Below, one piece after another: positions 6,410-37,708 of a stretch of DNA of 48,276 bases (its first letter is position 1; each line of letters begins with the position of its first letter). The stretch lies in contig JBBIVL010000002.1 in assembly GCA_037439765.1 (NCBI GenBank), positions 1 to 48,276 on the forward strand, in the 5' to 3' direction. A program made the translations under genes and the position numbers. Under the pieces are notes generated by a model. The model searched no databases. It was not told the origin of the DNA and was given only the letters and a program-made list of their open reading frames with translations. The DNA is from Candidatus Bipolaricaulota bacterium. Its GTDB lineage: Bacteria; Bipolaricaulota; Bipolaricaulia; Bipolaricaulales; Bipolaricaulaceae.

Positions 6410-6876
6410 TGGGCTTCCAGGGCTAGGAACCTCTCCTTCCAGCCGAGGCCCGGACCGTATCCGCCGAGCCCGTGCGTCCCCACCACCCGGTGGCACGGAA
6501 CGAGGATGGGCAGAGGGTTGCGCGCCAGGGCCTGGCCCACCGCACGGGTGGCCCGAGGGCTTCCTACCCCCTGGGCTACTTCCCCGTAGGTGCGGATCTC
6601 ACCATAGGGAATGCGCTGGAGCTCCTGCCAAACCCTTTGGAAAAAGGGCGGGCCTTGAAGAGAAAACGGCACGGTGAAGCTTTTCCGGTCTCCGCAGAAG
6701 TATTCGTTCAGCTCCTCTGTTAACTTCATCAGCAGGGAATTCTCCTCCCACGGACCCTCCGGAGGATCGGGGGGAAAACGAAGTGCCTTGATTTTTCTGC
6801 CGCGCCATTCCGCATAAAACGTACCCCAGACGGTGAGCACCTTTCCCCAGGGCATGCGGGAGCTTACGCCGCCCAC
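6382..6876 (-). CDS. ogt: Methylated-DNA--protein-cysteine methyltransferase (Ogt/MGMT)
   Basis: Active-site 'PCHRVV' and a helix-turn-wing block 'IPYGEIRTYGEVA...RAVGQALARNP'. The start is uncertain (GTG 6876 or ATG 6855). The 3' end overlaps convergent lptB by 28 nt. Confidence 0.88.
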   Translation of the reverse strand: MGGVSSRMPWGKVLTVWGTFYAEWRGRKIKALRFPPDPPEGPWEENSLLMKLTEELNEYFCGDRKSFTVPFSLQGPPFFQRVWQELQRIPYGEIRTYGEVAQGVGSPRATRAVGQALARNPLPILVPCHRVVGTHGLGGYGPGLGWKERFLALEAHYKEKFSPR

Positions 6877-6888
6877 CCCCTGGATACA

Positions 6889-8214
6889 ATGAGAGTCATG
6901 CGCGCGTTGGCTTTGGCTTGGCCGTTGGAGGGCCCCGAGCTCACCCGGGACGATTTCCCCACTGCGGAGTCCCTAGCCAGCTTTGACGTGGTCCTGATCG
7001 ATCCTGAGCCCTTGCCCTCCCTTTGGCAACCCTTTGCGGAATTGGCTCCCGATGGCACGCAGCGTCTCCATCCCAGCCGGGATCTTGGCCTCTCCCGTGC
7101 GTTGGAGAAGCTTTTTTCCTTGCGACAAAAAGAAGCAGAGGATCTACTTGCGGCCGGCGGTGTTTTGGTGGTGCGGGTCCGGGCAGCCGAGGAAGGCGTG
7201 GTGATCGAGGGAAATCCTCCCCGCAGGCTAACCACCTACAGCTTTCTTCCCAAGGCTTCCCTGGTTTCGGGACCGCATCATTTGGCGCTGCCCCAGGGGC
7301 TTCGGTTTGGGCTCCGCCGCGGCCACGATCTGCAGCTGGCAGATCCCTTGCATCCCCTGGCCCTCTATTTGGAACGCTTCGCCACCTTCGGCTACGAAGC
7401 CGTGGTCACCTCGGCCTTGGGCTCCCCCCTTTCTGCGTTCGGTCAGGTCCTTGCCCAAAACCGGGTGGGTGATGTGCTGGCCTTGGATCTTCCCGTGGGA
7501 CCAGGACGCCTCCTGTTCCTCCCCGCCTTCCCTGGGGCCGAAGGCCGGGAGGCCTGGGAGGTTTTCCGGCCGGGCATCTCCGCCCTGCTGGACCTCCCGC
7601 TCCCTGCCAACGCGCCCGATTGGCTGGGTAAATACAAGCTTCCCGGCGAGGAGGAACTGGAAAAAATTCGGACCGAACTCCTCCGGGAAAAGGAACGGCT
7701 GACGCGGCGGGAGGAGGAGCTGAACGCCGCGCAGCGGGAACTGGACACATTCAAAGCCCTCCTTTTCCCGCGGGGGAATGGGGTTTTTTCCCGCGCCGCC
7801 CGGGCTGCCTTTCAACGCCTAGGGTTTGCGGTAGCTGAGGTCCAACATGGAGCCGAGTTTGTGGCGCAAAGCCCGGAAGAGAACTTTCTGGTGCGCGTGG
7901 CCTTATCCCCGTTTGCCCCGGTGGGTCCGGAAGAGCATCGAGCTCTCCTCTTGTCCTTGGACAAGCTCCGTCACGAGGAAAGACAGGATGCGCAGGGGAT
8001 CCTGTTCTGTCTGGCTCAGCCTGATCTTGATCCCAAGCGGCGCGGGCCGCAATGGGATGAGACAGTGGAACGAGCCAGCCGCGACCATCGCTTTGTCCTC
8101 GTCTCCGCTTACGATTTTTTCCGGGCGGTGAGCCAAATCCTTGCAGGTGGGGATCCCCAAGAGGTGCGCAAATCCCTGGCCGAGGCGGAGGGCCCGTGGA
8201 GACCACGGTTCTGA
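6889..8214 (+). CDS. Hypothetical protein (N-terminal alpha/beta domain, central coiled coil, C-terminal nuclease-fold-like domain)
   Basis: 441-aa ORF with consistent codon and amino-acid usage. Heptad-rich 'EEELEKIRTELLREKERLTRREEELNAAQRELDTF' lies in the middle. No family recognised. ATG 6898 is an alternative start, 7 nt after a TACAAT box. Confidence 0.7.
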   Translation: MRVMRALALAWPLEGPELTRDDFPTAESLASFDVVLIDPEPLPSLWQPFAELAPDGTQRLHPSRDLGLSRALEKLFSLRQKEAEDLLAAGGVLVVRVRAAEEGVVIEGNPPRRLTTYSFLPKASLVSGPHHLALPQGLRFGLRRGHDLQLADPLHPLALYLERFATFGYEAVVTSALGSPLSAFGQVLAQNRVGDVLALDLPVGPGRLLFLPAFPGAEGREAWEVFRPGISALLDLPLPANAPDWLGKYKLPGEEELEKIRTELLREKERLTRREEELNAAQRELDTFKALLFPRGNGVFSRAARAAFQRLGFAVAEVQHGAEFVAQSPEENFLVRVALSPFAPVGPEEHRALLLSLDKLRHEERQDAQGILFCLAQPDLDPKRRGPQWDETVERASRDHRFVLVSAYDFFRAVSQILAGGDPQEVRKSLAEAEGPWRPRF

Positions 8215-10976: not shown

Positions 10977-11810
10977 ATGCGCCACATTCTTCTTGGGGTA
11001 GGCATGGCCCTGGTCTTTATGACCGGGGCCGGGGCGGACGCAGGAAGCCTCCTGGCCCAAGCCGAGGCCCTGTACGACCGCTGGCAGGGGGAGTTCGATT
11101 TCGCGGCTTACCAGGCTCGACTGGAGGAGGCCATTCAGCTTTGGGAGGAAGCGCTACCTCAGCTTGCGGGGCCTGTGGAAAGGCAGGCGGTTTTGGTGCG
11201 GCTCTCGCGGGCCTGGTTCGAGCTCGCTGAGGGGTATTTAGCGGAAAAAACCGAGCGGGAGAAGGCTTACGCTAAAGGGAAGGACTATGCGCTGGAGGCG
11301 TTGCGGATTGATCCCGCTTTCCGCGAGAAAGAAAGGCAAAGCTTTCGTTTAGCGCTGCGGGAAAGCTCGGATGTGGAGGCTCTTTTTTGGTACGGGAATA
11401 ACCTCGGTCGCTGGTTGGGTTTTCACTACTGGGAGGCGTTGACCGGGGGCACGCGGGATGTGTTGGCGGCATTCGAACGATGTGTGGAACTCGATGAGGC
11501 CTATTGGGGCGGGGGTCCCCGGCGGGCGTTGGCCAATTTCCTGGCCCAGACCCCCGGGTTTTTGGGCGGGGATTTTTCCCGGGCGGAAAGGGAGTTTCGC
11601 CGGGCCTTAGAGATTGCCCCGGAATTCCTCCAGAACTACGTGGATTATGCGGAGCACTGGGCCAAACCTGCGGGGAAGATGGAGCTGTTCTGCCAGCTTC
11701 TCCGGGAAGTTTGGGCCCGGGCCAAGGATCCGGAAGTTTTTCGGTCCTGGCCGTTGTACAACCTGTCGGCCCTGCGGCGAGCGGGGGAGTTGATGCGGGG
11801 TTGCGGGTGA
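10977..11810 (+). CDS. TPR-like secreted/lipoprotein, TatT-family-like
   Basis: 277 aa with a signal-like N-terminus and an all-helical repeat body. The block 'LANFLAQTPGFLGGDFSRAEREFRRALEIAP' resembles TRAP-T-associated TatT family proteins. GGAGGAGG SD upstream. Confidence 0.55.
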   Translation: MRHILLGVGMALVFMTGAGADAGSLLAQAEALYDRWQGEFDFAAYQARLEEAIQLWEEALPQLAGPVERQAVLVRLSRAWFELAEGYLAEKTEREKAYAKGKDYALEALRIDPAFREKERQSFRLALRESSDVEALFWYGNNLGRWLGFHYWEALTGGTRDVLAAFERCVELDEAYWGGGPRRALANFLAQTPGFLGGDFSRAEREFRRALEIAPEFLQNYVDYAEHWAKPAGKMELFCQLLREVWARAKDPEVFRSWPLYNLSALRRAGELMRGCG

Positions 11811-11830: not shown

Positions 11831-11858
11831 TTGACACCCTCTTCACCTAGGATATAGT
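11831..11858 (+). promoter_or_regulatory. Near-consensus sigma70 promoter (TTGACA-N16-TATAGT) for the riboswitch-controlled operon
   Basis: -35 TTGACA at 11831-11836 and -10 TATAGT at 11853-11858, 21 nt after the stop of the upstream gene. The predicted TSS near 11865 lies about 55 nt before aptamer 1. Confidence 0.6.
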
Positions 11859-11883
11859 GGAAGCGCTTGGGCGAGGTCCAGGC

Positions 11884-12005
11884 AAAGGGGGTGAAGGAGC
11901 AGCCTAAGTTCGGAAGACCGTCCTGGCCTTCCGATAAAGGCAAACCCGTCGCAAGGCGGGGGCGCAAAGCTGCAGGTCCCTCGGGGATGGCTGGGCTGCC
12001 GAAGA
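11884..12005 (+). repeat. Duplicated leader, copy A (paralogous to 12470-12590)
   Basis: Begins AAAGGGGGTGA, as does copy B. The 74-nt core 11931-12004 matches 12513-12586 at 69/74 positions by hand alignment. Confidence 0.85.
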
Positions 12006-12014
12006 ATGGCCAGG
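11922..12014 (+). promoter_or_regulatory. c-di-GMP-I (GEMM-I) riboswitch, copy 1
   Basis: Contains AAGGCAAACC, then hairpin CCCGUC[GCAA]GGCGGG, then GGCGCAAAGC, then a second hairpin (GCU-G-CAG-GUCCC[UCG]GGGAU-GG-CUG-GGC), then UGCCGAAG. This is the same block order as the V. cholerae Vc2 aptamer. The proposed closing helix CCUGGCC-UUC (11922-11931) / GAA (12001-12003) + GGCCAGG (12008-12014) spans the ATG at 12006. Confidence 0.8.
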
Positions 12015-12470
12015 AAGTGGGTAGTGGGAGTGATGATGGCTGCGGTAGGCCTCTCCGGGCCGGGGATGAGCGTATCCCGAAGCGTAAGTGTTTCCCTTTC
12101 CATCCCTGCGCTAAGTGTTCTTTCCCTGCCCGAGCAAGGCCTCACCGGGCGCGAGATCCCGGTGGAGGTGAACCTCCCGGATCTTTCGCCCCAGGGCCTT
12201 CTCATCCCCCTGGAGGTGAAGAGCAACGTTCCGTGGGCGGTTACGGCGCAGATCCTCGCTGAGGAACGCGCTGGACTCGTGGTTCAAGTTCTGGAGGGCC
12301 CGGAGGTTTTGGTGACCACAGAAGAAGTTCCCATCCTCACGGGCCGACCTGGGAAGTACGAGGTCCTCTTGCTTGTAAAATTGGCCGACCAGGCCCCCCT
12401 TACAGGGCAATGGACCCTTGTGCTTAGGGTGGCGGGCGGGGAAGGCGAAGGTGCCCGTCGCGCGGGGTGA
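12006..12470 (+). CDS. Secreted small subunit-like protein (paralog of the 12657 and 13238 subunit domains)
   Basis: 154 aa with signal peptide 'MARKWVVGVMMAAVGLSG'. 'LEVKSNVPWAVTAQI' and 'GQWTLVLRV' align with 'VSVWSNRTWTLSVAA' and 'GDYSLGFTYTL' of the next gene. It lies directly after riboswitch 1. Confidence 0.6.
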   Translation: MARKWVVGVMMAAVGLSGPGMSVSRSVSVSLSIPALSVLSLPEQGLTGREIPVEVNLPDLSPQGLLIPLEVKSNVPWAVTAQILAEERAGLVVQVLEGPEVLVTTEEVPILTGRPGKYEVLLLVKLADQAPLTGQWTLVLRVAGGEGEGARRAG

Positions 12471-12590
12471 AAGGGGGTGAGAGCCAAGCGAAAACGAGGA
12501 AATTCGGGGTGACCGATAAGGGCAAACCCGTCGTAAGGCGGGGGCGCAAAGCCACAGGTCCCTCAGGGATGGCTGGGCTGCCGAAGCACC
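12470..12590 (+). repeat. Duplicated leader, copy B (paralogous to 11884-12005)
   Basis: Same AAAGGGGGTGA start and same aptamer core as copy A (69/74 identical in the core). Confidence 0.85.
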
Positions 12591-12592
12591 CC
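12506..12592 (+). promoter_or_regulatory. c-di-GMP-I (GEMM-I) riboswitch, copy 2
   Basis: Contains AGGGCAAACC, then CCCGUC[GUAA]GGCGGG, then GGCGCAAAGC, then GCC-A-CAG-GUCCC[UCA]GGGAU-GG-CUG-GGC, then UGCCGAAG. Proposed closing helix GGGGUG (12506-12511) / CACCCC (12587-12592). Confidence 0.8.
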
Positions 12593-12651
12593 AAGAGAAG
12601 CAAAAACTCCCGGGTAAGAGGCCCGGTAAACAAAAACTTCTCTTGGAGGTG
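12591..12651 (+). promoter_or_regulatory. Putative expression-platform hairpin overlapping the SD of the 12657 gene
   Basis: CCAAGAGAAG (12591-12600) pairs perfectly with CUUCUCUUGG (12637-12646). The 3' arm runs into the SD GGAGGUG (12645-12651), 7 nt before ATG 12657. There is an inner hairpin CCGGG/CCCGG (12610-12626). The 5' arm overlaps the aptamer's closing-helix 3' strand by 2 nt. Confidence 0.5.
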
Positions 12652-12656
12652 CACAA

Positions 12657-13175
12657 ATGCGGAGCTTGAAAGTTTTGGCGGTTTTGGTGGCTGGAGTTAT
12701 GGGCGTGGTGAGCGGGATGGCTCAAACGAGCGTGACGGCGAATTCTACGGCGGTTTTCACGGTGCCGACCCTAATTCGGCTCCAGGTCAACGTGGCCACC
12801 ATCGACTTTGGGGCTCTGACCATGAACGACTACGATCTGGGGTATAAGGACGCCCTTGGGGCTCAAATCGTCTCCGTGTGGAGCAACCGCACGTGGACCC
12901 TGTCCGTGGCCGCGGATAGTGCCACCTGGACGGGGCCGTGGGCGAAGCCCGCAAGCGATCTGCAGCTTCGTGTTGCGTCCGTGAACAAACCGGAGCGCGT
13001 TACGGACTACCTGGGGACCCTCACGGGCCTCACCACCGTTGGGTTCGTCATTGCTGAGGGTTTGCCGGCCGGGAACATCCAGCACACCATGGACTTCCGA
13101 GTCCTGGTGGACTGGGATAACGACGTGGCCGGCGACTATTCGCTCGGCTTCACCTACACCCTCACCGCGCCGTGA
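12657..13175 (+). CDS. Secreted beta-rich fibre/pilin-like subunit (probable major subunit; WxL-like motif layout)
   Basis: 172 aa with signal peptide 'MRSLKVLAVLVAGVMGVVSGMAQ' and a strong SD. Clear paralogy to the C-terminal domain of the next gene (IDFGALT..DYDLGY...AQIVSV.S..TWTLSVAA...FRVLVDWD...GDYSLGFTYTLTAP). Confidence 0.85.
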   Translation: MRSLKVLAVLVAGVMGVVSGMAQTSVTANSTAVFTVPTLIRLQVNVATIDFGALTMNDYDLGYKDALGAQIVSVWSNRTWTLSVAADSATWTGPWAKPASDLQLRVASVNKPERVTDYLGTLTGLTTVGFVIAEGLPAGNIQHTMDFRVLVDWDNDVAGDYSLGFTYTLTAP

Positions 13176-13188
13176 CCCAGTATAGGTT

Positions 13189-13234
13189 GGGCAGCCCGGT
13201 TCCCCAAAAGAGCCGGGCTGCCCCTAACTTTTCT
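13189..13234 (+). terminator. Intrinsic-terminator-like hairpin (possible partial terminator/attenuator) after the major subunit gene
   Basis: Perfect 11-bp GC-rich stem GGGCAGCCCGG (13189-13199) / CCGGGCUGCCC (13213-13223) with a 13-nt loop, followed by CUAACUUUUCU (weak U tract). It starts 14 nt after the stop at 13175. Confidence 0.55.
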
Positions 13235-13237
13235 CCC

Positions 13238-14170
13238 ATGGGGAAATTCATGGTTTCTGCTCTTTTGGGACTGGTCCTCCTGGCCCTCCCCCTTTGGGCC
13301 CAGGATACGGGCTGGCGTAACCCCTCCCAGGACTTCGGCGAATTCGCCTTCGGGTGGCGGGCTTATTCCGACGACAACCAAAGCGCGATCGTTTTGAACC
13401 TTTGGGAGGTGATCTTCCATGATTATTGGGGGTATGGAATTAATCTGCCCCCTGGGACACGTGTGACGGGGATTGAGGTTCGCCTGGATGCTTGGCATTG
13501 GCGGTTGGGATGGGAGTTAGAATCCTATTTGTGGACGGAACTTTCCTGGGATGGGGGCGCGACCTGGACGTCCACAGGCTACGGCACAGGCCGTCTGCCC
13601 CTCTCCCAAACCACTTTCATTTTGGGAGGCCCCTCCGATCTTTGGGGAAGGACGGAGTGGCGTCTGGAGGAGCTCAGCGACCCAAACTTTCGTGTGCGCG
13701 TGTTTGGGATTGGTTCAGCCCGGCTGGACTGGGTGGCTGTGCGCGTTTACTACAGCACCGGCCTTGCCCTGGAAATCGAGCCCAGGACCGTGAATTTGGG
13801 CACGCTGAGTTTTGCTGACTACGACCAAGGTTTCTCGGAAAGACTGGAAGCGCAAATTATAGGGGTCACAAGCCCTGCCACCTGGACTCTGTACGTGGCC
13901 GCCCTGCAGGCGAGCTGGAGCTACGCCGGGGACCTCCCCAATCCCCAAAAGCCGTGTTCTCACTTACTTTGGCGCGTAGAGTATGCCGACGGCGCAGTGA
14001 CCGATTCCGCGCAAACGTTCACCCCGCTTTCCACCCTGGATCGCCTGGTGGCCCGAGGCAGCATCGGCCAGGCCAAACTCACCCTGAGCTTTCGGCTCCT
14101 CGTGGACTACGAAACCACGGTCCCCGGCACCTACACCCTGGACTTCCGCTACACCCTGGTAACCCCCTAG
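13238..14170 (+). CDS. Two-domain secreted protein: N-terminal Trp-rich beta domain plus C-terminal subunit domain (adhesin-like)
   Basis: Signal peptide 'MGKFMVSALLGLVLLALPLWAQD' from ATG 13238. The C-terminal ~138 aa are paralogous to the 12657 product (VNLGTLSFADYDQGF...AQIIGVTSPATWTLYVAA...FRLLVDYE...GTYTLDFRYTLVTP). The N-domain (13304-13753) has no recognised family. Confidence 0.8.
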   Translation: MGKFMVSALLGLVLLALPLWAQDTGWRNPSQDFGEFAFGWRAYSDDNQSAIVLNLWEVIFHDYWGYGINLPPGTRVTGIEVRLDAWHWRLGWELESYLWTELSWDGGATWTSTGYGTGRLPLSQTTFILGGPSDLWGRTEWRLEELSDPNFRVRVFGIGSARLDWVAVRVYYSTGLALEIEPRTVNLGTLSFADYDQGFSERLEAQIIGVTSPATWTLYVAALQASWSYAGDLPNPQKPCSHLLWRVEYADGAVTDSAQTFTPLSTLDRLVARGSIGQAKLTLSFRLLVDYETTVPGTYTLDFRYTLVTP

Positions 14171-14211
14171 TCCTTGGGAAGCCCCGCTTCTTTCCGTAAC
14201 ATTCCCTGGCC

Positions 14212-15210
14212 ATGCGTCGCTTTTTCCTCTTAGGACTCGGAATCCTTGGCGTCTTTGGCGCGGCGTTTGAGGTGAACCTCCTTGAGGTGGACCTCCAGGC
14301 CCGGCCAGGCATAGCCCTCTCCTTCTCCTTCATCGTCCGCAATGAGCTAGCCAGGAGCGAGCAGATCACCCTCTATCTTGGGGACTGGGACCGGGATGAG
14401 TTCGGCGAGAACCGGTTTTACGAGCCTGGGACTCTGGCGCGCTCCGCGTCCCTTTGGACTACGGTGGCGCCCACGGCCTTCGTGTTGAACCCGGGGGAGG
14501 TCCGGGAAATCCAAGGTATTGTGCAAATCCCAGCGGACGTCGAACCTGGCTCGTACTGGACCATCGTGTTCGTGCAGGGCGAGCCCCGCCTGGTCCCTTA
14601 CCAAGGGGTGATGGTCACCGTCACCCGCCGGATTGGGATCAAGGTCTACGTTACGGTGGAGCCGACCGAAGCGGCCGGGGAGCTCCTGGATGTGGAGATC
14701 CGCGGCCAGAATCCCCTTTGGATTTGGGTGAAATTCGCCAACACTGGGACGAGAAACCTGCGGGAAATTAAGGCCACTCTCCGGGTGATCGACGTGCAAG
14801 GGAAGACGGTGGCGGAGGGAAGCGCTTCGCCCGTCCCTTGCCTTCCCGGTGGGGAGCGGTGGATCCGCGTGGACACGGATTTCCGGCCCACACCTGGGGT
14901 TTATCAGGTCCTGGCCACTGTAGATTACGGTGGGGAAGCGATTTTGGCCATGCCCGTGCGCCTGGTCCTCCGGCCTCTTTCCCTCTTCCCCCTCGAAGAG
15001 GGGCTGGCTGTTCCCCAAGACCTGGACGGCGATGGGTTCCACGAGGATCTCAACGGCGACGGGGTCTTTGACGAGGCCGATCTCGAAATTTTCGCCCGAA
15101 ACCTCGCTCACCCGGTGGTACGGGCCAACCTGCGGGCCTTCGATTTCAATAACGACGGCGCCCTCGACGAGGGGGATCTTGGCGTCCTCCGCGGGCTCCT
15201 CAGTGGGTAG
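14212..15210 (+). CDS. Secreted protein with two tandem Ig-like beta-sandwich domains (PapD-like/DUF916-DUF3324-like) and a C-terminal dockerin-like module
   Basis: Signal peptide 'MRRFFLLGLGILGVFGAA'. Two ~110-aa beta-rich domains. The C-terminus carries two Ca-binding-type repeats, 'DLNGDGVFDEADLEIFARNL' and 'DFNNDGALDEGDLGVLRGLL' (15013-15201). Confidence 0.8.
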   Translation: MRRFFLLGLGILGVFGAAFEVNLLEVDLQARPGIALSFSFIVRNELARSEQITLYLGDWDRDEFGENRFYEPGTLARSASLWTTVAPTAFVLNPGEVREIQGIVQIPADVEPGSYWTIVFVQGEPRLVPYQGVMVTVTRRIGIKVYVTVEPTEAAGELLDVEIRGQNPLWIWVKFANTGTRNLREIKATLRVIDVQGKTVAEGSASPVPCLPGGERWIRVDTDFRPTPGVYQVLATVDYGGEAILAMPVRLVLRPLSLFPLEEGLAVPQDLDGDGFHEDLNGDGVFDEADLEIFARNLAHPVVRANLRAFDFNNDGALDEGDLGVLRGLLSG

Positions 15211-15260
15211 GGGCCAAAGTTCCGTAATCTGGGTTACCAAACTCCCCTCCTTCGAAAGGC

Positions 15261-15296
15261 TGCGGCCGCAAAATTTGTGGGATGCGGCCGCTTTTT
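15261..15296 (+). promoter_or_regulatory. Hairpin formed by two GCGGCCGC palindromes that encloses the start codon of the 953-aa gene
   Basis: GCGGCCGCA (15262-15270) pairs with UGCGGCCGC (15283-15291) to give 9 bp, followed by UUUUU (15292-15296). ATG 15282-15284 sits at the loop/stem junction, and no SD is visible upstream. Confidence 0.45.
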
Positions 15297-18143
15297 GCCC
15301 TAGTTTTTTGGGGCGTCCTTGCCCTGAGCCAGGACCTCGAAATCGCCCGCCTTTCCCCACCCGTCAAAGTTCGCCCAGGCGATTTCGCGATCCAGGTTTT
15401 GGAAATCGCAAACCGCACCCCGGCCGCGATCCTGGCCCACCTGAGCGTGGGACTTCCCCAAGGTTGGGAAGCCTTGGGGCTTCCGGAAACACTCTCCCTT
15501 GAGGCAGGCCAAGTGGATTACGTTTTCCTCACCCTCTACGTGCCCCGCACGGCGCCCAGCGGCGTTCACCCGGTGCGCCTCGTTTTGCGCTGGAACGGAA
15601 AGGAGCTTGTTGCGGAAACCCTAGTAGAAGTGGAGACGGTAGCAGCTTTGGAACTCCTTGCCCCATCCCCTCAGGCAGCAGCCCCCGGGGAATCCGTGAC
15701 CTTTGTGCTGCGCGTGGGGAACCGGGGCAACGCCCTGGACCGCGTGGCCCTGGAAGTGCGCCCTCCTTCGGGCTGGAGGGTAAGCCTGAGTCCCACGGAG
15801 ATGCCCCTGTCCCCAGGTGAGGTCGGGGAAGCCCGGGCCAGTCTGGAGATCCCTGAGGATGCGCGGGTGGGCCGGGAGGTGGTCCTGGCCGTGGCCCGCT
15901 CCACCGTTTCCCCCGAGGTGGAAGCCCGCACGGCCTGGTACGTGGAAGTCTTGCCGCCGGGGCCGGAACAAGTGCCGGTGCAGAAATTTGCGGAGCTTTC
16001 CATGCAGGGTCTTGGTCGCCTGTCCCACGAGTTTTTGGCCAAAAGCGGGAGCTCCTTCCTCGGTTTTTCTGGCCGGGGCACGGTGTTTGAGGGAGCGTTG
16101 GAGCTTTCCGCGCGGTGGGCCGGCCCTTGGGCCCCCAAGCCCCTGCAATTCTTGGACTTCCAGGCCACCTACGTCACGGACTCCCTGGAGATGGAGGTCG
16201 GCCAGGTGGGGTTATCCTTCGACTCGCTCCTGTCCTCCCTGGGCTTTTGGGGCCTGGGAACGCAGCTCACCCTGGAACCCCTGAGGCTTTCTTTTGGCTC
16301 CGGCTGGGCCAGGACCGTGGGGCGCACCGGGGGAAAATGGCTTTTGCGTTCTTCCTGGGGTGAAGTGGGAGGGGCCTACCGCGAGGAGCGCGGGGACGAT
16401 TTTCACAGCCGTGGCGGCGTGAGTTGGCTTGGCCTGCAGCCCTTCGAGGGCCTGCGGTTTCGCCTGGAGGCGGGGGCAGCCCAGGTGCAAGGCCTCACCC
16501 GCTTCGCCGGGCAAATGAGCCTCACCTGGGAAATTCCCGAACTTTTCTTCCTGGAAGCCCGGACGTATGCCATCGATCCTGGTTTTCCCGCGTTGGTACG
16601 AGACCGGGCTGGCGCGCTCCTCTCCGGCCGCCTGGGTGCCGAGGAAGCGGGGTTCCGCTTTGTGTGCGACTGGCAGCGGGATAACCTGCGTGGCCTTGCC
16701 CTGTCCACCCGTGGCTGGTACGGAATCCAAGCGGGTTGGGACCTGTTCCCCACGGAATGGCCCCTGCGTTTCGGTTTTGCTCTGGCCCTGCGACGTACGG
16801 CGGACCTGGGCCTCCCGTCCGTTTGGGACGAACGGACGGCGCGAGCCGAGGCTCACGCCGTGTTTTCCCACCAGGGCTTTACTTTGGGCCTCCAAGAGGC
16901 CTACACGCGCTCCGAGGACGTGGCCTCGGAGCAAACCTGGACGCGCCAGGAATTTCGAGAATGGCTGGACCTTCGCGTTTCCCCCGCCGTTTCCTTAAGC
17001 GGGGAATTTCGCCAAACGTTGCTTGTTTCCCCAGAGGAAACCCTTACCCAAAGCGAGGCCACTTTTTCTTTAGCCGTAGTGGACCGATTACGGCTGACTT
17101 GGGAATACAGCCGGGAGGGCGGGCTTGCCCGCGGGGAATTTTCGTTTTCCCCGGCGCTTCCTCTTACCTTGAAGCTTGGGGCCGAGATCCGCTGGGGCGA
17201 GGAGGGCACCCCTACTCGGTTCTCGGGAACCTTGGAGTTCCTCTACTCTTTTTCCTGGGCTCCCCCGTTTTTGCCCGTGTATGGCCTCCTTTCCGGAGAA
17301 GTTTTTGCTGATCTGGACGGTGATGGTCTGCGGGGACCCCACGAGCCCGGCGTCGCCGGGGCTACCCTTGTCCTCGACGATCTCCTCGTCTCCTCCGGGA
17401 AAACTGGGGAATTCCGCTTCCCTGGCCAGCCCCCCGGGGATTACACGTTGCGCCTCGTTCGCCTTCCGCCCAAGTACGGTACGCCGATTCAGGAGTTTCC
17501 TGTGGCCCTAGAGCTCGGGAAAACCACGAAAATACTCATTCCGGTGTTGCCCTTGGCGGAGATTCGGGGAGTGGTGTTCCTCGATGCTGACGCAGATGGG
17601 AATTGGGGAGCTGGGGAGCTGGGCTTGGGCCGAGTCTACGTGCGTCTGGTCTCAGAAACTGGCCAATTGGTGGAGGTATTTTCTGATCCGGCGGGGCGGT
17701 TCGGGTGGGCCGAATTCCTGCCCGGCAAGTATCGAGCGGAGCTCATCTTGGAATCCCTGCCACCGCGACATGACCCTACTACGCCCACGTCCCTGGAACT
17801 TGTGTTGGCGCCGGGCGAGAGGCGGGACGTGATTTTTGGGGTGCGGGAGCGGCCAAGACCGGTGGTGGTGATCCAACCTCCCTTGGCGGAGTTCGTCTGG
17901 ACACCCAGCAGGCCCAAAGCCGGCGAGGCGGTCCTCTTCGATGGTACACTTTCCCAGGCGTTTGACACGGCGGAAATCGTGCGCTACGCCTGGGACTTCA
18001 ACGATGATGGGCGGATCGATGTTGAAGGCCCCCGCGCCACCTGGAGCTTCCCCGAGCCCGGTTTTTACCTGGTGACCTTGATCGTCACCGATTCGGCCGG
18101 CCTCACCGGCCAAACCCAGTACCTCCTGCAAGTCCAGCCCTGA
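15282..18143 (+). CDS. Large multidomain secreted/outer-membrane protein (2x NEW3/CARDB-like, central beta-barrel-like region, 2x SdrD-B/CarboxypepD_reg-like, PKD)
   Basis: 953 aa with signal peptide 'MRPLFALVFWGVLALSQ'. 'GESVTFVLRVGNRGN...PPSGWRV...PGEVGEARASLEIPEDARVG' is NEW3-like. Residues ~235-660 show amphipathic beta-strand periodicity and end in 'LEFLYSFSW'. 'GEVFADLDGDG...GEFRFPGQPPGDYTL' and 'GVVFLDADADGNWG...GRFGWAEFLPGKY' are SdrD-B-like. 'YAWDFNDDG...FYLVTLIVTDSAGL' is PKD. Confidence 0.85.
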   Translation: MRPLFALVFWGVLALSQDLEIARLSPPVKVRPGDFAIQVLEIANRTPAAILAHLSVGLPQGWEALGLPETLSLEAGQVDYVFLTLYVPRTAPSGVHPVRLVLRWNGKELVAETLVEVETVAALELLAPSPQAAAPGESVTFVLRVGNRGNALDRVALEVRPPSGWRVSLSPTEMPLSPGEVGEARASLEIPEDARVGREVVLAVARSTVSPEVEARTAWYVEVLPPGPEQVPVQKFAELSMQGLGRLSHEFLAKSGSSFLGFSGRGTVFEGALELSARWAGPWAPKPLQFLDFQATYVTDSLEMEVGQVGLSFDSLLSSLGFWGLGTQLTLEPLRLSFGSGWARTVGRTGGKWLLRSSWGEVGGAYREERGDDFHSRGGVSWLGLQPFEGLRFRLEAGAAQVQGLTRFAGQMSLTWEIPELFFLEARTYAIDPGFPALVRDRAGALLSGRLGAEEAGFRFVCDWQRDNLRGLALSTRGWYGIQAGWDLFPTEWPLRFGFALALRRTADLGLPSVWDERTARAEAHAVFSHQGFTLGLQEAYTRSEDVASEQTWTRQEFREWLDLRVSPAVSLSGEFRQTLLVSPEETLTQSEATFSLAVVDRLRLTWEYSREGGLARGEFSFSPALPLTLKLGAEIRWGEEGTPTRFSGTLEFLYSFSWAPPFLPVYGLLSGEVFADLDGDGLRGPHEPGVAGATLVLDDLLVSSGKTGEFRFPGQPPGDYTLRLVRLPPKYGTPIQEFPVALELGKTTKILIPVLPLAEIRGVVFLDADADGNWGAGELGLGRVYVRLVSETGQLVEVFSDPAGRFGWAEFLPGKYRAELILESLPPRHDPTTPTSLELVLAPGERRDVIFGVRERPRPVVVIQPPLAEFVWTPSRPKAGEAVLFDGTLSQAFDTAEIVRYAWDFNDDGRIDVEGPRATWSFPEPGFYLVTLIVTDSAGLTGQTQYLLQVQP

Positions 18144-18154
18144 ATTAGCCAGGG

Positions 18155-19075
18155 CTATCCGTGGCCGCCCAACAGGCGTACCAACAGGCCTTTTTGGGCG
18201 TGAAGACGATTCTCCGCCTGATCAAAAATGACGGAGTTCTTGCTCCGTGCAGCCTCGTAGGTGATCTCCTCCCCATAATGAGCGGGAAGGCAGTGCATAA
18301 CCAGGACATCGGGCTTGGCCCGGGAAAGAAGGGCAAGATCCACGGTGTAGCCCTGGAATTTCTTGCGCCGAAGCTCGGCCTCGGCCTCCTGGCCCATGCT
18401 CGTCCAAACGTCGGTGTAAATCACGTCCGCGTCCTTGGCCGCCTCCTTGGGATCGCGAAGAATTTCCACCTTGGCTCCCAAGGCCCGCGCTTCCGCGACG
18501 ATGCGGGCATCGGGCTCATGGCCCTCCGGGCAGGCGATGCGAAAATGCATCCCAAATTTCCCGGAAGCCTCGATGAGGGAGTTTGCCACGTTGTTTCCGT
18601 CCCCAATGAACACCAGGGTTAGACCCTCAAGCTTCCTTTTCTTCTCCCAAATGGTGAGCACATCGGCCAGGGCTTGGCAGGGGTGGAGGAGGTCGGAAAG
18701 GCCGTTGATCACGGGGACAGTGGCGAAGCGGGCCAACTCCTCCACCACCTCGTGGCCGAACACGCGGGCCATGATGCCGTCCACGTAGCGGGAGAGGTTC
18801 AAGGCCACATCTTCCACGCTTTCCCGGTGGCCAAGCTTGATGTCCTCGGGGCCAAGATAGAGGGCGTACCCGCCGAGCTGCCACATCCCCACCTCAAACG
18901 ACACCCGCGTCCGAAGGGAAGGTTTTTGAAAAATCAGGCCCAGGGTTTTGCCGCGCAGGAGATGATCGGGGCGAAGGCCAGCACGGTGTTCCCGCTTGAG
19001 GTGTACGGAAAGCTCCAGGACTTCCCAGAGCTCCTCCCTCGACCAATCGGCAAAGCTTACGAAATCGCGTTTCAT
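18155..19075 (-). CDS. argF: Ornithine carbamoyltransferase
   Basis: 306 aa with 'SLRTRVSFE', 'HPCQALAD', 'DVWTSMGQE' and '[10 protein letters not shown]' OTCase motifs. GGAGG SD upstream. Confidence 0.92.
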
Positions 19076-19139
19076 CGGACCTCCTTGGGGGAATAGCGTG
19101 GGTCATGATAACCACACGGGGTGAGCCAACACAAAAGCG

Positions 19140-19168
19140 TTGGGCAAGATAGGGCCATCCGCTACAAT
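19140..19168 (+). promoter_or_regulatory. Candidate sigma70 promoter for gltX (TTGGGC-N17-TACAAT), likely giving a leaderless mRNA
   Basis: -35 at 19140-19145 and -10 at 19163-19168. ATG 19177 begins 8 nt after the -10 box and has no SD. Confidence 0.5.
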
Positions 19169-19176
19169 TGGTGTCT

Positions 19177-20487
19177 ATGAACACGGTAAGGGTGAGGTTT
19201 GCGCCGAGCCCCACAGGGTACCTCCACGTGGGTGGGGCTCGGACTGCGCTCTTCAACTGGTTGTACGCTCGCCACCACGGGGGAACGTTCATCCTGCGCA
19301 TCGAGGACACGGATCGCACCCGCTCCACTGACGAGGCCATTGAGCAGATCATTGCCTCCCTGCGCTGGCTGGGGTTGGATTGGGATGAGTTCTATCGACA
19401 GACCGAGCGGTTTCATCGACACAAGAGCTATGCCGAGGAGCTTTTGCGGCGAGGAGCAGCCTACGAGGCCGAGGGAGCGGTGTGGTTCCGGATTCCCAAG
19501 GAGGGCGAGATCGTCGTAGACGACCTCATCGCCGGGCCGGTGAGGTTTCAAAACCGGGAATTCAAGGATCTCGTGATCCTCCGTTCCGACGGCACCCCCA
19601 CCTACAACTTTGCCTGCGTGGTGGACGATACGGAGATGGGCATCACCCATGTGATCCGTGGGGATGAGCATCTCCCCAACACCCCTAAGCAGCTCCATAT
19701 TTATCGGGCCCTCGAGCTTACTCCTCCGAAGTTCGCCCACATTCCCCTCATTCTGGGTCCGGACCGCACCAAGCTCTCCAAACGTCACGGCGCCGTGTCC
19801 GTTCTGGAATATGGCCGGACGGGCATCCTGCCTGAGGCCATGGTGAATTTCTTGGCCCGCCTGGGCTGGTCCCACGGCGATCAGGAGATTTTCTCCCGGG
19901 AGGAACTCGTGCGGTACTTTGACCTTCCGGGGGTGGGACAGTCCCCGGCTGTGTTCGATGAGCAGAAGCTGCTCTGGCTCAACCGGGAGTGGATGCGCCG
20001 CATCCCCGTGGCGGAGCTCGCGGAAAAGGTCAAGGAATTCGTGGTCGTGGAGGGCGTGGCCTCAAAAGATGCGGTGGCAGCCTTGCCCCGCGGGCGTTTC
20101 TTGCGTGCGGTGGAGCTCTTGCGGGATCGCACCCACACGTTGGTCGATCTCGCCCACACCACCTGCTTCTTGTTCCCTGGCGAGCTTCCGCTGCCCGCGG
20201 ATGCCCGCGAGCTCCTTCAGCCGGAGCTGGCCGGGCCCTTTTTGACCCTGGCTCAAGCCCTCGAGGACCTCGAGGACCCGGATCCAGCGGAATTCGAGGC
20301 GGCGGTGAGGGCAGTTCTGGAACGGTTGGGCCTTCCGCTTAAGGCGGTGGCCTTGCCCATGCGGGTGGTCATCACCGGTTCCCGCGTGGGCCCCGGACTG
20401 TTTGAGATGCTGGCTTTGGCCGGACCGCGGCTTGTGGCCGAGCGCTTGCGCCGGGCTGCGGTCCAACTGTGTGCGCAGAAAGGATGA
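19177..20487 (+). CDS. gltX: Glutamate--tRNA ligase
   Basis: 'RVRFAPSPTGYLHVGGARTALFNW' (HIGH region) and 'KLSKRHG' (KMSKS). The track ORF starts at TTG 19168; ATG 19177 is preferred. Confidence 0.92.
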   Translation: MNTVRVRFAPSPTGYLHVGGARTALFNWLYARHHGGTFILRIEDTDRTRSTDEAIEQIIASLRWLGLDWDEFYRQTERFHRHKSYAEELLRRGAAYEAEGAVWFRIPKEGEIVVDDLIAGPVRFQNREFKDLVILRSDGTPTYNFACVVDDTEMGITHVIRGDEHLPNTPKQLHIYRALELTPPKFAHIPLILGPDRTKLSKRHGAVSVLEYGRTGILPEAMVNFLARLGWSHGDQEIFSREELVRYFDLPGVGQSPAVFDEQKLLWLNREWMRRIPVAELAEKVKEFVVVEGVASKDAVAALPRGRFLRAVELLRDRTHTLVDLAHTTCFLFPGELPLPADARELLQPELAGPFLTLAQALEDLEDPDPAEFEAAVRAVLERLGLPLKAVALPMRVVITGSRVGPGLFEMLALAGPRLVAERLRRAAVQLCAQKG

Positions 20488-36496: not shown

Positions 36497-37708
36497 CTAG
36501 TAGCGCCACTCCACCGTGTACTCCAGAGAGGTTTCCCCTCCCGGAGCCACGGGGACCACGAATCTTACCCGCTGGGCGTCCAGGACTTCATAGGGGAGCG
36601 TGGAGGTGAGGATTTGCCAGTACCCAGAGAGGGACTCGATGACCTCCACTTCCGTTTCCTCCGCCTTGGTCGAGCGCAGGAGGACACGCCAGGTGTCGCG
36701 GAACAGGTTCTCCCCCATCCGCTCGCGCTTCACTTGCGCGCGAGTTCCCGTGAGGTCAAACGCGTAGCCCACAGGGAGTTCCGCGCTTTTCCCCTTGGGC
36801 AGAGAAGGGAGGGAACTTGCGCCCACGAAGATCCCCTCCGCATACGCGCGCAGCTCCCCTGCGGGGAGAATTTGATCCGTAGGGGTGAAGCGAATCCACA
36901 CCGCCACCGCCGCCCCGTCGAACCGGTAAAACTTGGTGGCCGGAAACGCCCCCCGCATTAAGGGAAGCACGGCCACGCCTGGGGCAAGATCCCAGGATCC
37001 TGGGAGGTCGTAGCGGTAGTACTCAAAGGTTTCGGTGGGCGGGGCCTCGGGAAAGGCGGCCAGCGCGCGCACGGCCACGTCCTTGGCCGGCGCGCGAACT
37101 TCCCCGGCGATCAGCGTGAGCGCCGCACCCGAAAATTCCACCCCGGTGTCATTTTGGATGACGGCTTTGCCCAAAACCTGCAACACATCGCTTTGAAATA
37201 GGGCCTCGTACACAATCTTCCAGGAGAGTCCCCAGGTAAGGTAGCGGAAGCGCAACTCCTTCACGCCAGGTTCCGGACTGCGGTAGGCGAGGAGGGCTTG
37301 AGCAGAGGAGGCCGGGGCATAACGAGGGCCTCGCAGCCACTCGTAGTCCCGCAACAAAACCACTCCCTCCCTGGTTTCCAGTACCAACCCCTCCGCCAAA
37401 ACCTCCCGGAGGATTCCCCGAAACACGGTGGTTCTCGTCTGCACCGTGACTTCCTGCCCCAAAAGCCGCTTGAGACTCCAGGGCTCCGGAGAAGCGGGCG
37501 AGAGGCGCAGGGTTTCCAAGCCGCCCACGGTGAGGGTCTCCCACAGCGTGCCCTCCGGGAAACCGGAGAGTTCCAGCACTCCTTCTTCAGAAACGGTCAG
37601 CCTTCTTGTCTCCTCCACCAAGGCTAAGCCGGAAGAGTAGAGGACGAGCTGCGTTTGGCCGAAGGCCAAAACCCCCGCGAACCCCAACACCAAAAGCACT
37701 CGGACCAT
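36497..37708 (-). CDS. DUF4139-domain secreted protein
   Basis: 403 aa with signal 'MVRVLLVLGFAGVLAFG'. 'LRFRYLTWGLSWKIVYEA' and the overall beta-rich layout are typical of DUF4139 (mucoidy-inhibitor-A-like) proteins. Confidence 0.7.
   Translation of the reverse strand: MVRVLLVLGFAGVLAFGQTQLVLYSSGLALVEETRRLTVSEEGVLELSGFPEGTLWETLTVGGLETLRLSPASPEPWSLKRLLGQEVTVQTRTTVFRGILREVLAEGLVLETREGVVLLRDYEWLRGPRYAPASSAQALLAYRSPEPGVKELRFRYLTWGLSWKIVYEALFQSDVLQVLGKAVIQNDTGVEFSGAALTLIAGEVRAPAKDVAVRALAAFPEAPPTETFEYYRYDLPGSWDLAPGVAVLPLMRGAFPATKFYRFDGAAVAVWIRFTPTDQILPAGELRAYAEGIFVGASSLPSLPKGKSAELPVGYAFDLTGTRAQVKRERMGENLFRDTWRVLLRSTKAEETEVEVIESLSGYWQILTSTLPYEVLDAQRVRFVVPVAPGGETSLEYTVEWRY

Follow-up and report, generated by a model that had tools for sequence, protein, structure and literature searches.

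A five-gene operon of Candidatus Bipolaricaulota with paired riboswitches as a candidate for a very divergent chaperone-usher-type surface fibre

What is built by the products of five adjacent genes that carry signal peptides, are preceded by two aptamers of the cyclic di-GMP (c-di-GMP) riboswitch clan and fall, for most of their length, into no named protein family? The genes (open reading frames ORF1 to ORF5) lie with their promoter at positions 11831–18143, + strand, of DNA from an uncultured Candidatus Bipolaricaulota (Acetothermia) bacterium; the whole stretch analysed, 48,276 nucleotides (nt) long, is called here the window. A first-pass annotation had proposed that they follow the logic of chaperone-usher pili (minor subunit, major subunit, tip-like subunit, chaperone-like protein and platform), and this proposal gained support part by part. 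We consider it probable that the genes form a single operon for a surface fibre polymerised by donor-strand exchange, through a very divergent chaperone-usher-type assembly across the toga-like outer membrane. According to published work the Bipolaricaulota are diderm bacteria with a Thermotoga-like (toga-like) outer membrane and no genes for lipopolysaccharide (LPS). One genome study reports no pilus genes in the phylum, and a few pili, of identity not known, occur at the toga ends of its first isolate; the operon is a candidate for them.

The five proteins and the spread of their genes

The evidence that carries this reading begins with ORF2 (12657–13175), which encodes 172 amino acids (aa). 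None of its 73 homologues at 53–88% identity has a Pfam domain, and every named one is labelled Candidatus Bipolaricaulota (Acetothermia). The protein has a signal peptide and, by an alignment of 38 homologues, a conserved N-terminal strand (STAxFTVPTLIRL) and a C-terminal motif (GxYxLxFTYTLTAP), the N-terminal segment being among the best-conserved parts of the mature protein. The AlphaFold2 (AF2) model is a beta-sandwich (predicted local distance difference test, pLDDT, 82.8) in which the signal peptide and the N-terminal segment have low confidence. Its best Foldseek matches in the PDB are TLP-1a and TLP-1b (E 2e-4 and 1e-3, probability 1.00), with template-modelling (TM) scores of 0.49 and 0.45 as normalised to the query including its signal peptide. 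Weaker matches (E 0.02–0.12) comprise the Sulfolobus 0406 thread, PapA, the PapG pilin domain, CsuA/B and CanA, found among unrelated folds such as furin. TLP-1a/b (9ikj, 9ikk) are fibrils recovered from filtered pond water and solved by cryo-electron microscopy (CryoSeek), and they polymerise by donor-strand exchange (PMC11494351). No organism, gene or assembly machinery is known for them; their relatives by predicted structure are unannotated, the closest coming from a Flavobacteriales bacterium (PMC11494351).

The same relationship is seen at the level of the protein family. A profile of the subunit family, searched against the whole protein library, retrieved 588 cluster representatives at E<=1e-3 and 120 at E<=1e-10, whose members share a C-terminal GxYxLxxxYTLxAP-like motif. 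When 127 diverse members were combined into a profile and compared with the whole PDB, the sole meaningful matches were again TLP-1a/b (E 0.0019 and 0.0039), in a colinear alignment that runs from the N-terminal donor strand of TLP-1 through its C-terminal PGxYxL strand. The assignment of ORF2 as a subunit is thus borne out by a family whose only PDB relatives are donor-strand-exchange fibrils. Searches of other kinds returned less: PDB searches with the single sequences of ORF2 and of the ORF3 N-terminal domain found nothing, a word-index protein search with the diverse subunit alignment returned almost only Bipolaricaulota, and neither ORF1–3 nor the 127 family members matched a Pfam fimbrial-subunit family (PF00419 and relatives) or any other Pfam family.

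On these alignments and profiles ORF2 is classed as the major subunit and ORF1 as its divergent paralogue. ORF1 (12006–12470, 154 aa, secreted) has no NCBIfam match either, and BLASTP of ORF1 against ORF2 gave nothing; their relationship is visible with the family hidden Markov model (HMM) only. The HMM scores ORF1 at 16.6 bits (E 3e-7 for one sequence), over a match that spans the signal peptide, the N-terminal strand and a KSNxPW motif, and ORF1 orthologues reach E values of 2e-5 to 1e-11. The small subunit-like protein first proposed here is accordingly a weak member of the subunit family, the putative minor subunit; a role as terminator or anchor is speculative.

ORF3 had been described as a two-domain protein with the subunit domain at its C-terminus. 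Residues 196–332 are indeed 40% identical to ORF2 residues 38–172 (E 8e-24). The alignment starts just past the N-terminal strand of ORF2, so that ORF3 lacks the free strand that ORF2 has ahead of its subunit domain; in its place is a domain of about 150 aa that has no Pfam or PDB match. An N-terminal domain followed by a pilin domain devoid of N-terminal extension is the architecture of two-domain tip adhesins, and by this analogy ORF3 is a tip-adhesin-like subunit and a candidate for receptor binding. Orthologues of 307–346 aa are present in all related loci. All five ORFs were found as first placed, with one correction. ORF3 (ending at 14170) had been started at GTG 13172, which overlaps the ORF2 stop codon and gives 332 aa; its start is probably ATG 13238 or 13250, past a strong hairpin, with about 310 aa from ATG 13238.

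ORF4 (14212–15210, 332 aa) consists of two beta-sandwich domains (about residues 18–255) and a dockerin-type tail (278–326). Its profile, built from 59 homologues of many phyla, aligned with six Escherichia coli PapD-type chaperones over 208 columns and both domains (hhalign 85%, E 6e-6). Compared with the PDB, the profile matched EfmWxLIP1 (9i25, 9i1y; E 1.2e-7, over the first domain and into the second) and EcpB, the chaperone of ECP pili (5dfk; E 2e-4). By profile comparison the ORF4 family is remotely homologous to PapD-type chaperones, to EcpB and to the Firmicute WxLIP proteins, in agreement with its earlier description as chaperone-like. By curated cut-offs it would not be counted as a member of the PapD family: Pfam PapD_N matches 3 of the 59 members, all below threshold, and PF06030 (WxLIP_PGBD, formerly DUF916) matches 27 of them, with a best E of 8.7e-5 and all below the curated cut-off. 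Profile depth mattered for this comparison. The ORF4 sequence alone gave no match to PapD and only dockerin matches in the PDB, and a profile of six sequences reached an hhalign value of 6% against the chaperones. The tail, also noticed beforehand, is a Dockerin_1 domain (27.8 bits, cut-off 22.9). The Bipolaricaulota ORF4 proteins examined have it, whereas the aligned homologues of other phyla, with 260–300 aa, end past the second domain and carry neither a tail nor a transmembrane helix. This dockerin-type, calcium-binding tail may tether ORF4 to the toga or to the platform.

ORF5 (15282–18143, 953 aa) is the putative outer-membrane platform. Pfam recognises two NPCBM_assoc domains, two SdrD_B domains and a PKD domain. 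In the AF2 model (pLDDT 81, above 90 over most of the barrel core) two Ig-like domains (19–223) are followed by 26 consecutive beta strands (238–659), two SdrD_B/CarboxypepD_reg-like domains (668–856) and a poorly modelled PKD domain (866–946), as the first reading of the protein, a platform-like barrel flanked by Ig-like, SdrD-B-like and PKD domains, had anticipated. Foldseek places eight FimD entries and then PapC at the head of the PDB matches (E 3e-15 to 1e-10, about 730–770 columns). The predicted structure thus has the architecture of an usher, a large barrel with periplasmic N- and C-terminal beta-sandwich domains. The earlier statement that FimD/PapC hallmarks are lacking holds for the sequence, as neither ORF5 nor its homologues in other phyla match Pfam Usher (PF00577) at E<=1; it does not hold for the fold. 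A PDB search with the single ORF5 sequence found only PKD and SdrD matches. The C-terminal module appears to be exchangeable: in place of PKD, the usher-like protein of Geomobilimonas luticola (locus L051, 5076–7997) ends in a peptidoglycan-binding OmpA domain and that of locus L005 (12334–14529) in a SPOR domain. Because of these OmpA and SPOR ends and of the even strand number, both termini of ORF5 are placed in the periplasm, as in ushers.

Conservation of the gene set had been named beforehand as a test of the proposal, and the set is kept well beyond the phylum. The synteny of ORF2–ORF5 is retained in relatives down to about 55% identity. ORF2 occurs together with proteins of about 305 aa, about 335 aa (with dockerin) and about 950 aa both among the same neighbours (loci L001 and L002) and among different ones (L003 and L004). 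A wider sample of at least 120 loci, one genome per species, was collected with a degenerate DNA pattern for the C-terminal motif, which favours members ending in YTLTAP and makes the distribution a lower bound; HMMs of the subunit, chaperone-like and usher-like families were run over all ORFs of these 8-kb loci. The order subunit(s), chaperone-like gene (260–350 aa) and usher-like gene (650–1000 aa) is found in most of the at least 120 loci, which come from about ten phyla. Among the matches listed it was seen in Acidobacteriota, Gemmatimonadota, Verrucomicrobiota, Burkholderiales, Lysobacterales, Desulfobacterota (including Geobacter and Geomobilimonas luticola JCM 17780), Armatimonadota, NC10, Eisenbacteria and Hebobacteria. 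Of the 120 loci listed, a chaperone-like gene is recognised in 101 (E<1e-10) and an usher-like gene in 74; many of those listed without one or the other end at the 8-kb locus limit. In the two Bacteroidota loci listed, the 8 kb fetched contain subunit and chaperone-like genes and no usher-like gene. Two relatives of the subunit from metagenomes are also clustered with ORF5-like proteins and with ORF4-like ones (E 1e-18 and 7e-14 to ORF4), and many of the listed loci carry 3–5 subunit paralogues. No Pfam or NCBIfam family covers ORF1–3, the Ig-like part of ORF4 or the ORF5 barrel, for which only generic flanking domains are found, and representative proteins from four other phyla likewise have no dedicated family in these databases. 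The literature searched contained no description of the cluster. The system thus still counts as previously undescribed after Pfam, NCBIfam and literature searches, which is absence of evidence and not proof.

Two loci labelled Thermotoga sp. and Thermotogaceae (L111 and L123) encode subunits almost identical to the Bipolaricaulota type (HMM E ~1e-52) and carry the same riboswitch pair; this likeness suggests mis-binning or lateral transfer.

Leader RNAs and regulation

The operon is preceded by a sigma-70-type promoter (TTGACA-N16-TATAGT, 11831–11858) that agrees with the consensus at 11 of 12 positions. At the looser threshold used in the promoter scan about one such box per region is expected by chance; the promoter recognised in the first-pass annotation is upheld by the recurrence of the box, about 100 nt 5′ of the first aptamer, in 12 of 15 related Bipolaricaulota loci. 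The leader between promoter and first aptamer (11859–11929) holds a segment kept across loci (aagggggtga...gcagcc).

Two aptamers of clan CL00126 follow, one before each of the first two genes. Riboswitch 1 (11922–12014) comprises the aptamer (11930–12004) and an extension of its P1 helix; riboswitch 2 (12506–12649) has its aptamer at 12512–12586. The earlier call of two c-di-GMP riboswitches stands insofar as both aptamers exceed the gathering score of 59 over the full length of the model (70.9 and 73.3 bits); the Rfam model that fits them best is RF03167 (c-di-GMP-I-GGC) and not RF01051. At the position in GACGCGAAg for which the consensus of RF03167 has G, the two window aptamers carry A, and the nucleotide set of the variant at ligand-contacting positions is not found in them. 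Related aptamers agree: in all 33 with a readable motif, the conserved GC pair is preceded by G and CGC is followed by A. The ligand contacts in the Vc2 structure we take to be G20, A47 and C92, and the name of RF03167 we read, as an unverified assumption, as G20/G47/C92. On these Vc2 contacts the binding site looks canonical for c-di-GMP, even though the highest score comes from the variant model. Related Bipolaricaulota loci that included the upstream region also have the aptamer pair; it is conserved within the phylum, and the gene set well beyond it.

The start codon of ORF1 lies one nucleotide past aptamer 1. The 5′ flank of the aptamer, CCUGGCC (11922–11928), can pair with GGCCAGG (12008–12014), which covers the G of this start codon and the next two codons. 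In all 14 related leaders, a stretch of 5–11 nt in the 5′ flank is complementary to the sequence that starts at the start-codon G and reaches into codon 3, with compensatory variants that include CCUGGCC/GGCCAGG, CUGACC/GGUCAG (Ala to Val in codon 2) and GGACG/UGUCC. In riboswitch 2 three elements could compete: a mimic of the Shine-Dalgarno sequence (SD), GGGGUG (12506–12511); an anti-SD arm, CACCCCAAGAGAAG (12587–12600); and the SD-containing partner CUUCUCUUGGAGG (12637–12649). The minimum-free-energy fold has the anti-SD arm paired with the SD. The 6–7 nt directly 5′ of the aptamer (GGGGUG/GAGGUG) are complementary to 6–7 nt 3′ of it (CACCCC, CACCUC, CGCCUC), and complementarity of the 5′ flank with the anti-SD and of the anti-SD with the SD is found in 16 of 16 leaders. 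The three elements covary as sets, GAGGUG/CACCUC/GGAGGUG in some and, in locus L075, GGGGUG/CACCCCC/GGGGGUG, in which even the change in the SD is matched.

From this pairing potential we infer that the ligand turns translation of ORF2 on and that of ORF1 off. Ligand bound to aptamer 2 would extend P1 onto the anti-SD arm and free the SD of ORF2, and ligand bound to aptamer 1 would extend P1 over the start codon of ORF1. It is unlikely, with a chance that is still appreciable, that this regulatory reading is partly wrong, the two aptamers acting in the same direction, controlling mRNA stability or transcription, or binding a related dinucleotide. In favour of such an error, the best model is that of a variant class whose ligand was not verified, no SD is evident for ORF1, and the pairing arguments come from sequence only. 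The G and A of all 33 readable aptamers, the canonical contact set by what we take to be the Vc2 contacts, argue against a different ligand, and the three-way complementarity of riboswitch 2, which covaries up to the SD change of L075, argues for the proposed switch. A GGDEF enzyme next to the operon in locus L003 points the same way: a 1453-aa protein of diguanylate cyclase type (PAS/GAF(x6)/GGDEF; 15452–19813, − strand) adjoins the usher-like gene in convergent orientation. Canonical c-di-GMP-I aptamers lie 5′ of subunit genes in L109 (Hebobacteria), where a terminator-like hairpin follows, and in L012.

Two further aptamer arrangements were noted. In a metagenome-assembled genome of Chthonomonadaceae (L120), RF03167 aptamers at 2556–2649 and 7408–7495 each precede a gene for a protein that resembles type IV prepilins at its N-terminus (MKRYVKSARRARKGFTLVELLVV and MKRNAAPSRPVRKGFSLVELLAV), and these genes flank a subunit-chaperone-usher-like cluster; two fibre types may share one second-messenger signal there. 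In L003 a third aptamer of the same clan (6603–6677, the same as L025 7068–7142), about 3 kb 5′ of the pilus operon, precedes a 107-aa ORF (6721–7044) with a weak ribbon-helix-helix match, which could be a riboswitch-controlled small regulator.

Directly 3′ of the ORF2 stop codon the window has a GC-rich stem-loop of 14 bp (13189–13223). All 12 Bipolaricaulota loci checked have a hairpin of 13–16 bp and −35 to −44 kcal/mol past their major-subunit gene, and some of the changes in the stems are compensated. The hairpin probably keeps the ratio of major to minor subunit high, as a partial terminator or by stabilising the mRNA, and it recalls the stem-loop 3′ of the major-subunit genes papA and fimA.

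Proposed assembly and alternative readings

By analogy with the Fim and Pap systems, all five products would be exported by Sec, and the two-domain ORF4 would cap newly exported subunits in the periplasm by lending them a strand. ORF5 would be a large barrel in the outer membrane, the beta-sandwich domains at both its termini turned towards the periplasm, and there the conserved N-terminal strand of each incoming subunit would displace the strand of the chaperone. ORF3 would be the first, distal subunit, an adhesin, and could take no other place because an extra N-terminal domain stands in it where a free N-terminal strand would be. ORF2 would make up the shaft and ORF1 would be a minor subunit, possibly, and speculatively, a terminator or anchor. 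The hairpin 3′ of ORF2 would hold the downstream genes at lower levels. PapH is the terminator of P pili; if ORF1 were to act like PapH, which is speculative, high c-di-GMP would lead to more and longer fibres.

Several observations weigh against this scheme. The cluster family is known from genes and predicted structures alone, with no fibre, secretion or ligand binding observed for any member; donor-strand complementation within it is putative, and the direction of each riboswitch is a prediction from pairing potential. The TLP-1 matches are modest (TM 0.45–0.49, E ~1e-3), and the subunit profile compared with 11 E. coli type 1-like pilins gave an hhalign value of 13%, that is, no homology. 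For ORF5, structures of the usher barrel alone matched at about 2e-7, no better than ChuA or LptD, so that its usher likeness rests on the overall architecture. Profiles of its family compared with five E. coli ushers gave hhalign values of 1.4% (23 sequences) and 0.4% (46 sequences); a deeper profile did not help here, unlike in the chaperone comparison, which rose when the profile grew from 6 to 59 sequences. The ushers PapC and FimD have 24 strands and a plug domain inserted between strands. The ORF5 model departs from this plan in having 26 strands, connecting loops of about 1–9 residues and no inserted plug domain (DSSP of the AF2 model). Finally, the dockerin tail is unaccounted for on a chaperone that is supposed to be recycled.

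The strongest competitor of the donor-strand-exchange fibre is a surface complex that does not polymerise, as in the WxL/WxLIP (Csc) systems, in which a few subunits would be held by ORF4 and displayed through or on the ORF5 barrel. We regard it as unlikely. EfmWxLIP1 is the best sequence-level relative of ORF4 among solved structures (E 1e-7), WxL clusters follow the same logic, in which a small subunit goes with a large one that has N-terminal domains and with a two-Ig partner (PMC10599100), and the dockerin tail suggests that ORF4 stays attached and is not recycled. Against such a complex stand the subunit family itself, whose only PDB relatives are true donor-strand-exchange fibrils, and its strongly conserved N-terminal strand. 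The conserved hairpin past ORF2 fits a need for one subunit in large excess, many loci encode 3–5 subunit paralogues, and a large usher-like barrel is not needed for simple anchoring.

Less probable still, and in our judgement quite improbable, is an ordinary member of a classified chaperone-usher clade (archaic/sigma or alternate/ECP-like) that has drifted beyond the Pfam models. The reach of the chaperone-like family to PapD-type chaperones (85%) and EcpB (E 2e-4) and the closeness of the ORF5 model to FimD and PapC would fit such an origin. It is countered by the Pfam results, since no tested member matches the Usher or a fimbrial-subunit family and the 3 of 59 chaperone-like members that touch PapD_N all do so below threshold, and by the negative profile comparisons with E. 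coli ushers and pilins. The 26 predicted strands without plug insertion and the flanking domains (NEW3-like, SdrD_B, PKD, OmpA, SPOR), which differ from the families of the N- and C-terminal usher domains, also separate ORF5 from known ushers. The archaic (SCPU/Csu-type) clade was compared through Pfam models and Foldseek only.

That five unrelated secreted or outer-membrane proteins, for example a porin and miscellaneous adhesins, merely share an operon would fit the lack of dedicated Pfam or NCBIfam families for ORF1–3, the Ig-like part of ORF4 and the ORF5 barrel, and is very unlikely, to the point of being negligible, because the synteny is conserved, the same three families recurring in the same order in most of the at least 120 loci from about ten phyla, and because the closest structural or profile relatives of each family are pilus components.

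Other machineries were set aside on their domains. Sortase, type IV and TasA systems were rejected since no such domains are present and the fold matches point elsewhere, consistent with the absence of sortase, prepilin and TasA hallmarks already remarked on in the first-pass annotation. Type V (Bacteroidia) pili were rejected for want of a lipobox and of FimA-type matches. The N-termini of ORF1–5, read directly, show a short basic and then a hydrophobic stretch and no lipobox cysteine, which bears out the early description of five same-strand genes for signal-peptide proteins.

The operon is taken to end at 18143 because the next gene, for ornithine carbamoyltransferase, is convergent. Its neighbours are housekeeping genes, and a phage or mobile origin was rejected on this ground. 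Just 5′ of the operon (10977–11810, + strand) a TAtT-family TPR protein, similar to the T-component of TRAP transporters, is encoded. L001 too has a gene of this family close to the operon, and L003 has one at its far end, which may be coincidence. Elsewhere in the window two ORFs (6889–8214, 441 aa, + strand; 36497–37708, 403 aa, − strand) have no Pfam family at E<=1e-5.

Comparison with known systems

A broader proposal goes beyond the single operon and is put forward tentatively, as possible and with less than even confidence. It holds that there is an ancient, unnamed class of chaperone-usher-type pili that unites the TLP-1 fibrils and the unannotated cluster of about ten diderm phyla (those named being Bipolaricaulota, Acidobacteriota, Gemmatimonadota, Verrucomicrobiota, Pseudomonadota, Desulfobacterota, Bacteroidota and Armatimonadota), with WxL/WxLIP as a monoderm remnant that has no platform; in Bipolaricaulota, riboswitches of opposite output would set the ratio of the terminator-like subunit to the shaft subunit, and so the length or number of fibres. 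If this were true, the environmental TLP-1 fibrils, solved without known genes, would gain a gene cluster and a plausible assembly pathway. Chaperone-usher-type assembly, mostly studied in Proteobacteria, would reach LPS-free toga-type diderms and poorly studied phyla of soil and sediment. An evolutionary bridge would connect Gram-negative chaperone-usher pili to Gram-positive WxL/WxLIP, with a bearing on the fate of envelope machines at the loss of the outer membrane. The dual, apparently antagonistic riboswitches of one operon are a compact and testable regulatory design, and cultured carriers of the cluster (Geomobilimonas luticola, Arenimonas donghaensis, Variovorax, Flaviaesturariibacter) make the proposal directly testable.

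As for regulation, a type IV pilin of Clostridioides difficile is under the control of a c-di-GMP-II riboswitch. An aptamer of the GEMM-I clan in the leader of a surface-adhesion gene is exemplified by Bc2 and the collagen adhesin of Bacillus thuringiensis (PMC4933901). The operon resembles such adhesins and pili in having a GEMM-I-clan aptamer in the leader of an adhesion gene. It differs from them in placing two aptamers in one operon before two paralogous subunit genes, with predicted outputs that are opposite and both seemingly exerted on translation initiation.

The TLP-1 fibrils share with the subunit family the protomer fold and a detectable, modest sequence relationship that includes the donor strand. 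TLP-1 protomers are larger (236–237 aa) and have extra loops. Their donor strand comes from protomer n+4 in a helical tubule, whereas the subunit family is known here from its sequences and a monomer model.

Pam pili of the candidate phyla radiation (CPR; bioRxiv 10.64898/2026.03.03.709456), compared by description only, are likewise donor-strand-exchange pili from outside the Proteobacteria. Their operon too has genes for PapD/FimC-like chaperones, for a tip pilin that has no linker strand and for a protein proposed as terminator or anchor. In contrast to the operon studied here, their pilins are two-domain proteins reported as exclusive to CPR, the chaperones are membrane-anchored and no riboswitch is reported; as their host is monoderm, they lack a platform in an outer membrane.

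WxLIP is the two-Ig-domain partner protein of Firmicute WxL clusters, and AlphaFold2 predicts that it inserts a strand into WxL (PMC10599100). The WxL/WxLIP (DUF916-DUF3324) clusters have in common with the operon two kinds of subunit, a small one and a large one that joins N-terminal domains to the same C-terminal domain, and a two-Ig partner, which is of WxLIP type by the ORF4 profile (EfmWxLIP1 matched; PF06030 touched by 27 of 59 members). The subunits themselves differ: no WxL-domain match was found for ORF1–3 or among the 25 families listed for the 127 members, Trp-x-Leu motifs are absent, and the C-terminus reads YTLTAP. WxLIP ends in a transmembrane helix and ORF4 in a dockerin, neither of which occurs in the homologues of other phyla. 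WxL clusters also lack an outer-membrane barrel, and WxL proteins are described as bound to peptidoglycan, not as fibres.

The chaperone-usher pili (Fim, Pap, ECP) are among the closest counterparts. The operon has in common with them a major and a minor subunit, a two-domain tip subunit without a free strand, a two-Ig partner and a large barrel whose beta-sandwich domains are periplasmic; ORF4 belongs to a family remotely homologous to PapD-type chaperones and EcpB, and the ORF5 model is closest to FimD and PapC. It is unlike them in that the usher-like protein and the subunits have no sequence-level homology or Pfam match to theirs, the barrel has 26 strands, no plug and flanking domains of other families, and ORF4 carries a dockerin. 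The host is an LPS-free toga-type bacterium, and control is by riboswitches instead of invertible promoters or regulators. By sequence criteria, then, the system is not a member of the usher or fimbrial-subunit families; on profile comparisons and predicted structures it is most likely a deeply divergent variant of chaperone-usher pili, which shares its subunit family with TLP-1 and its chaperone-like family with WxLIP.

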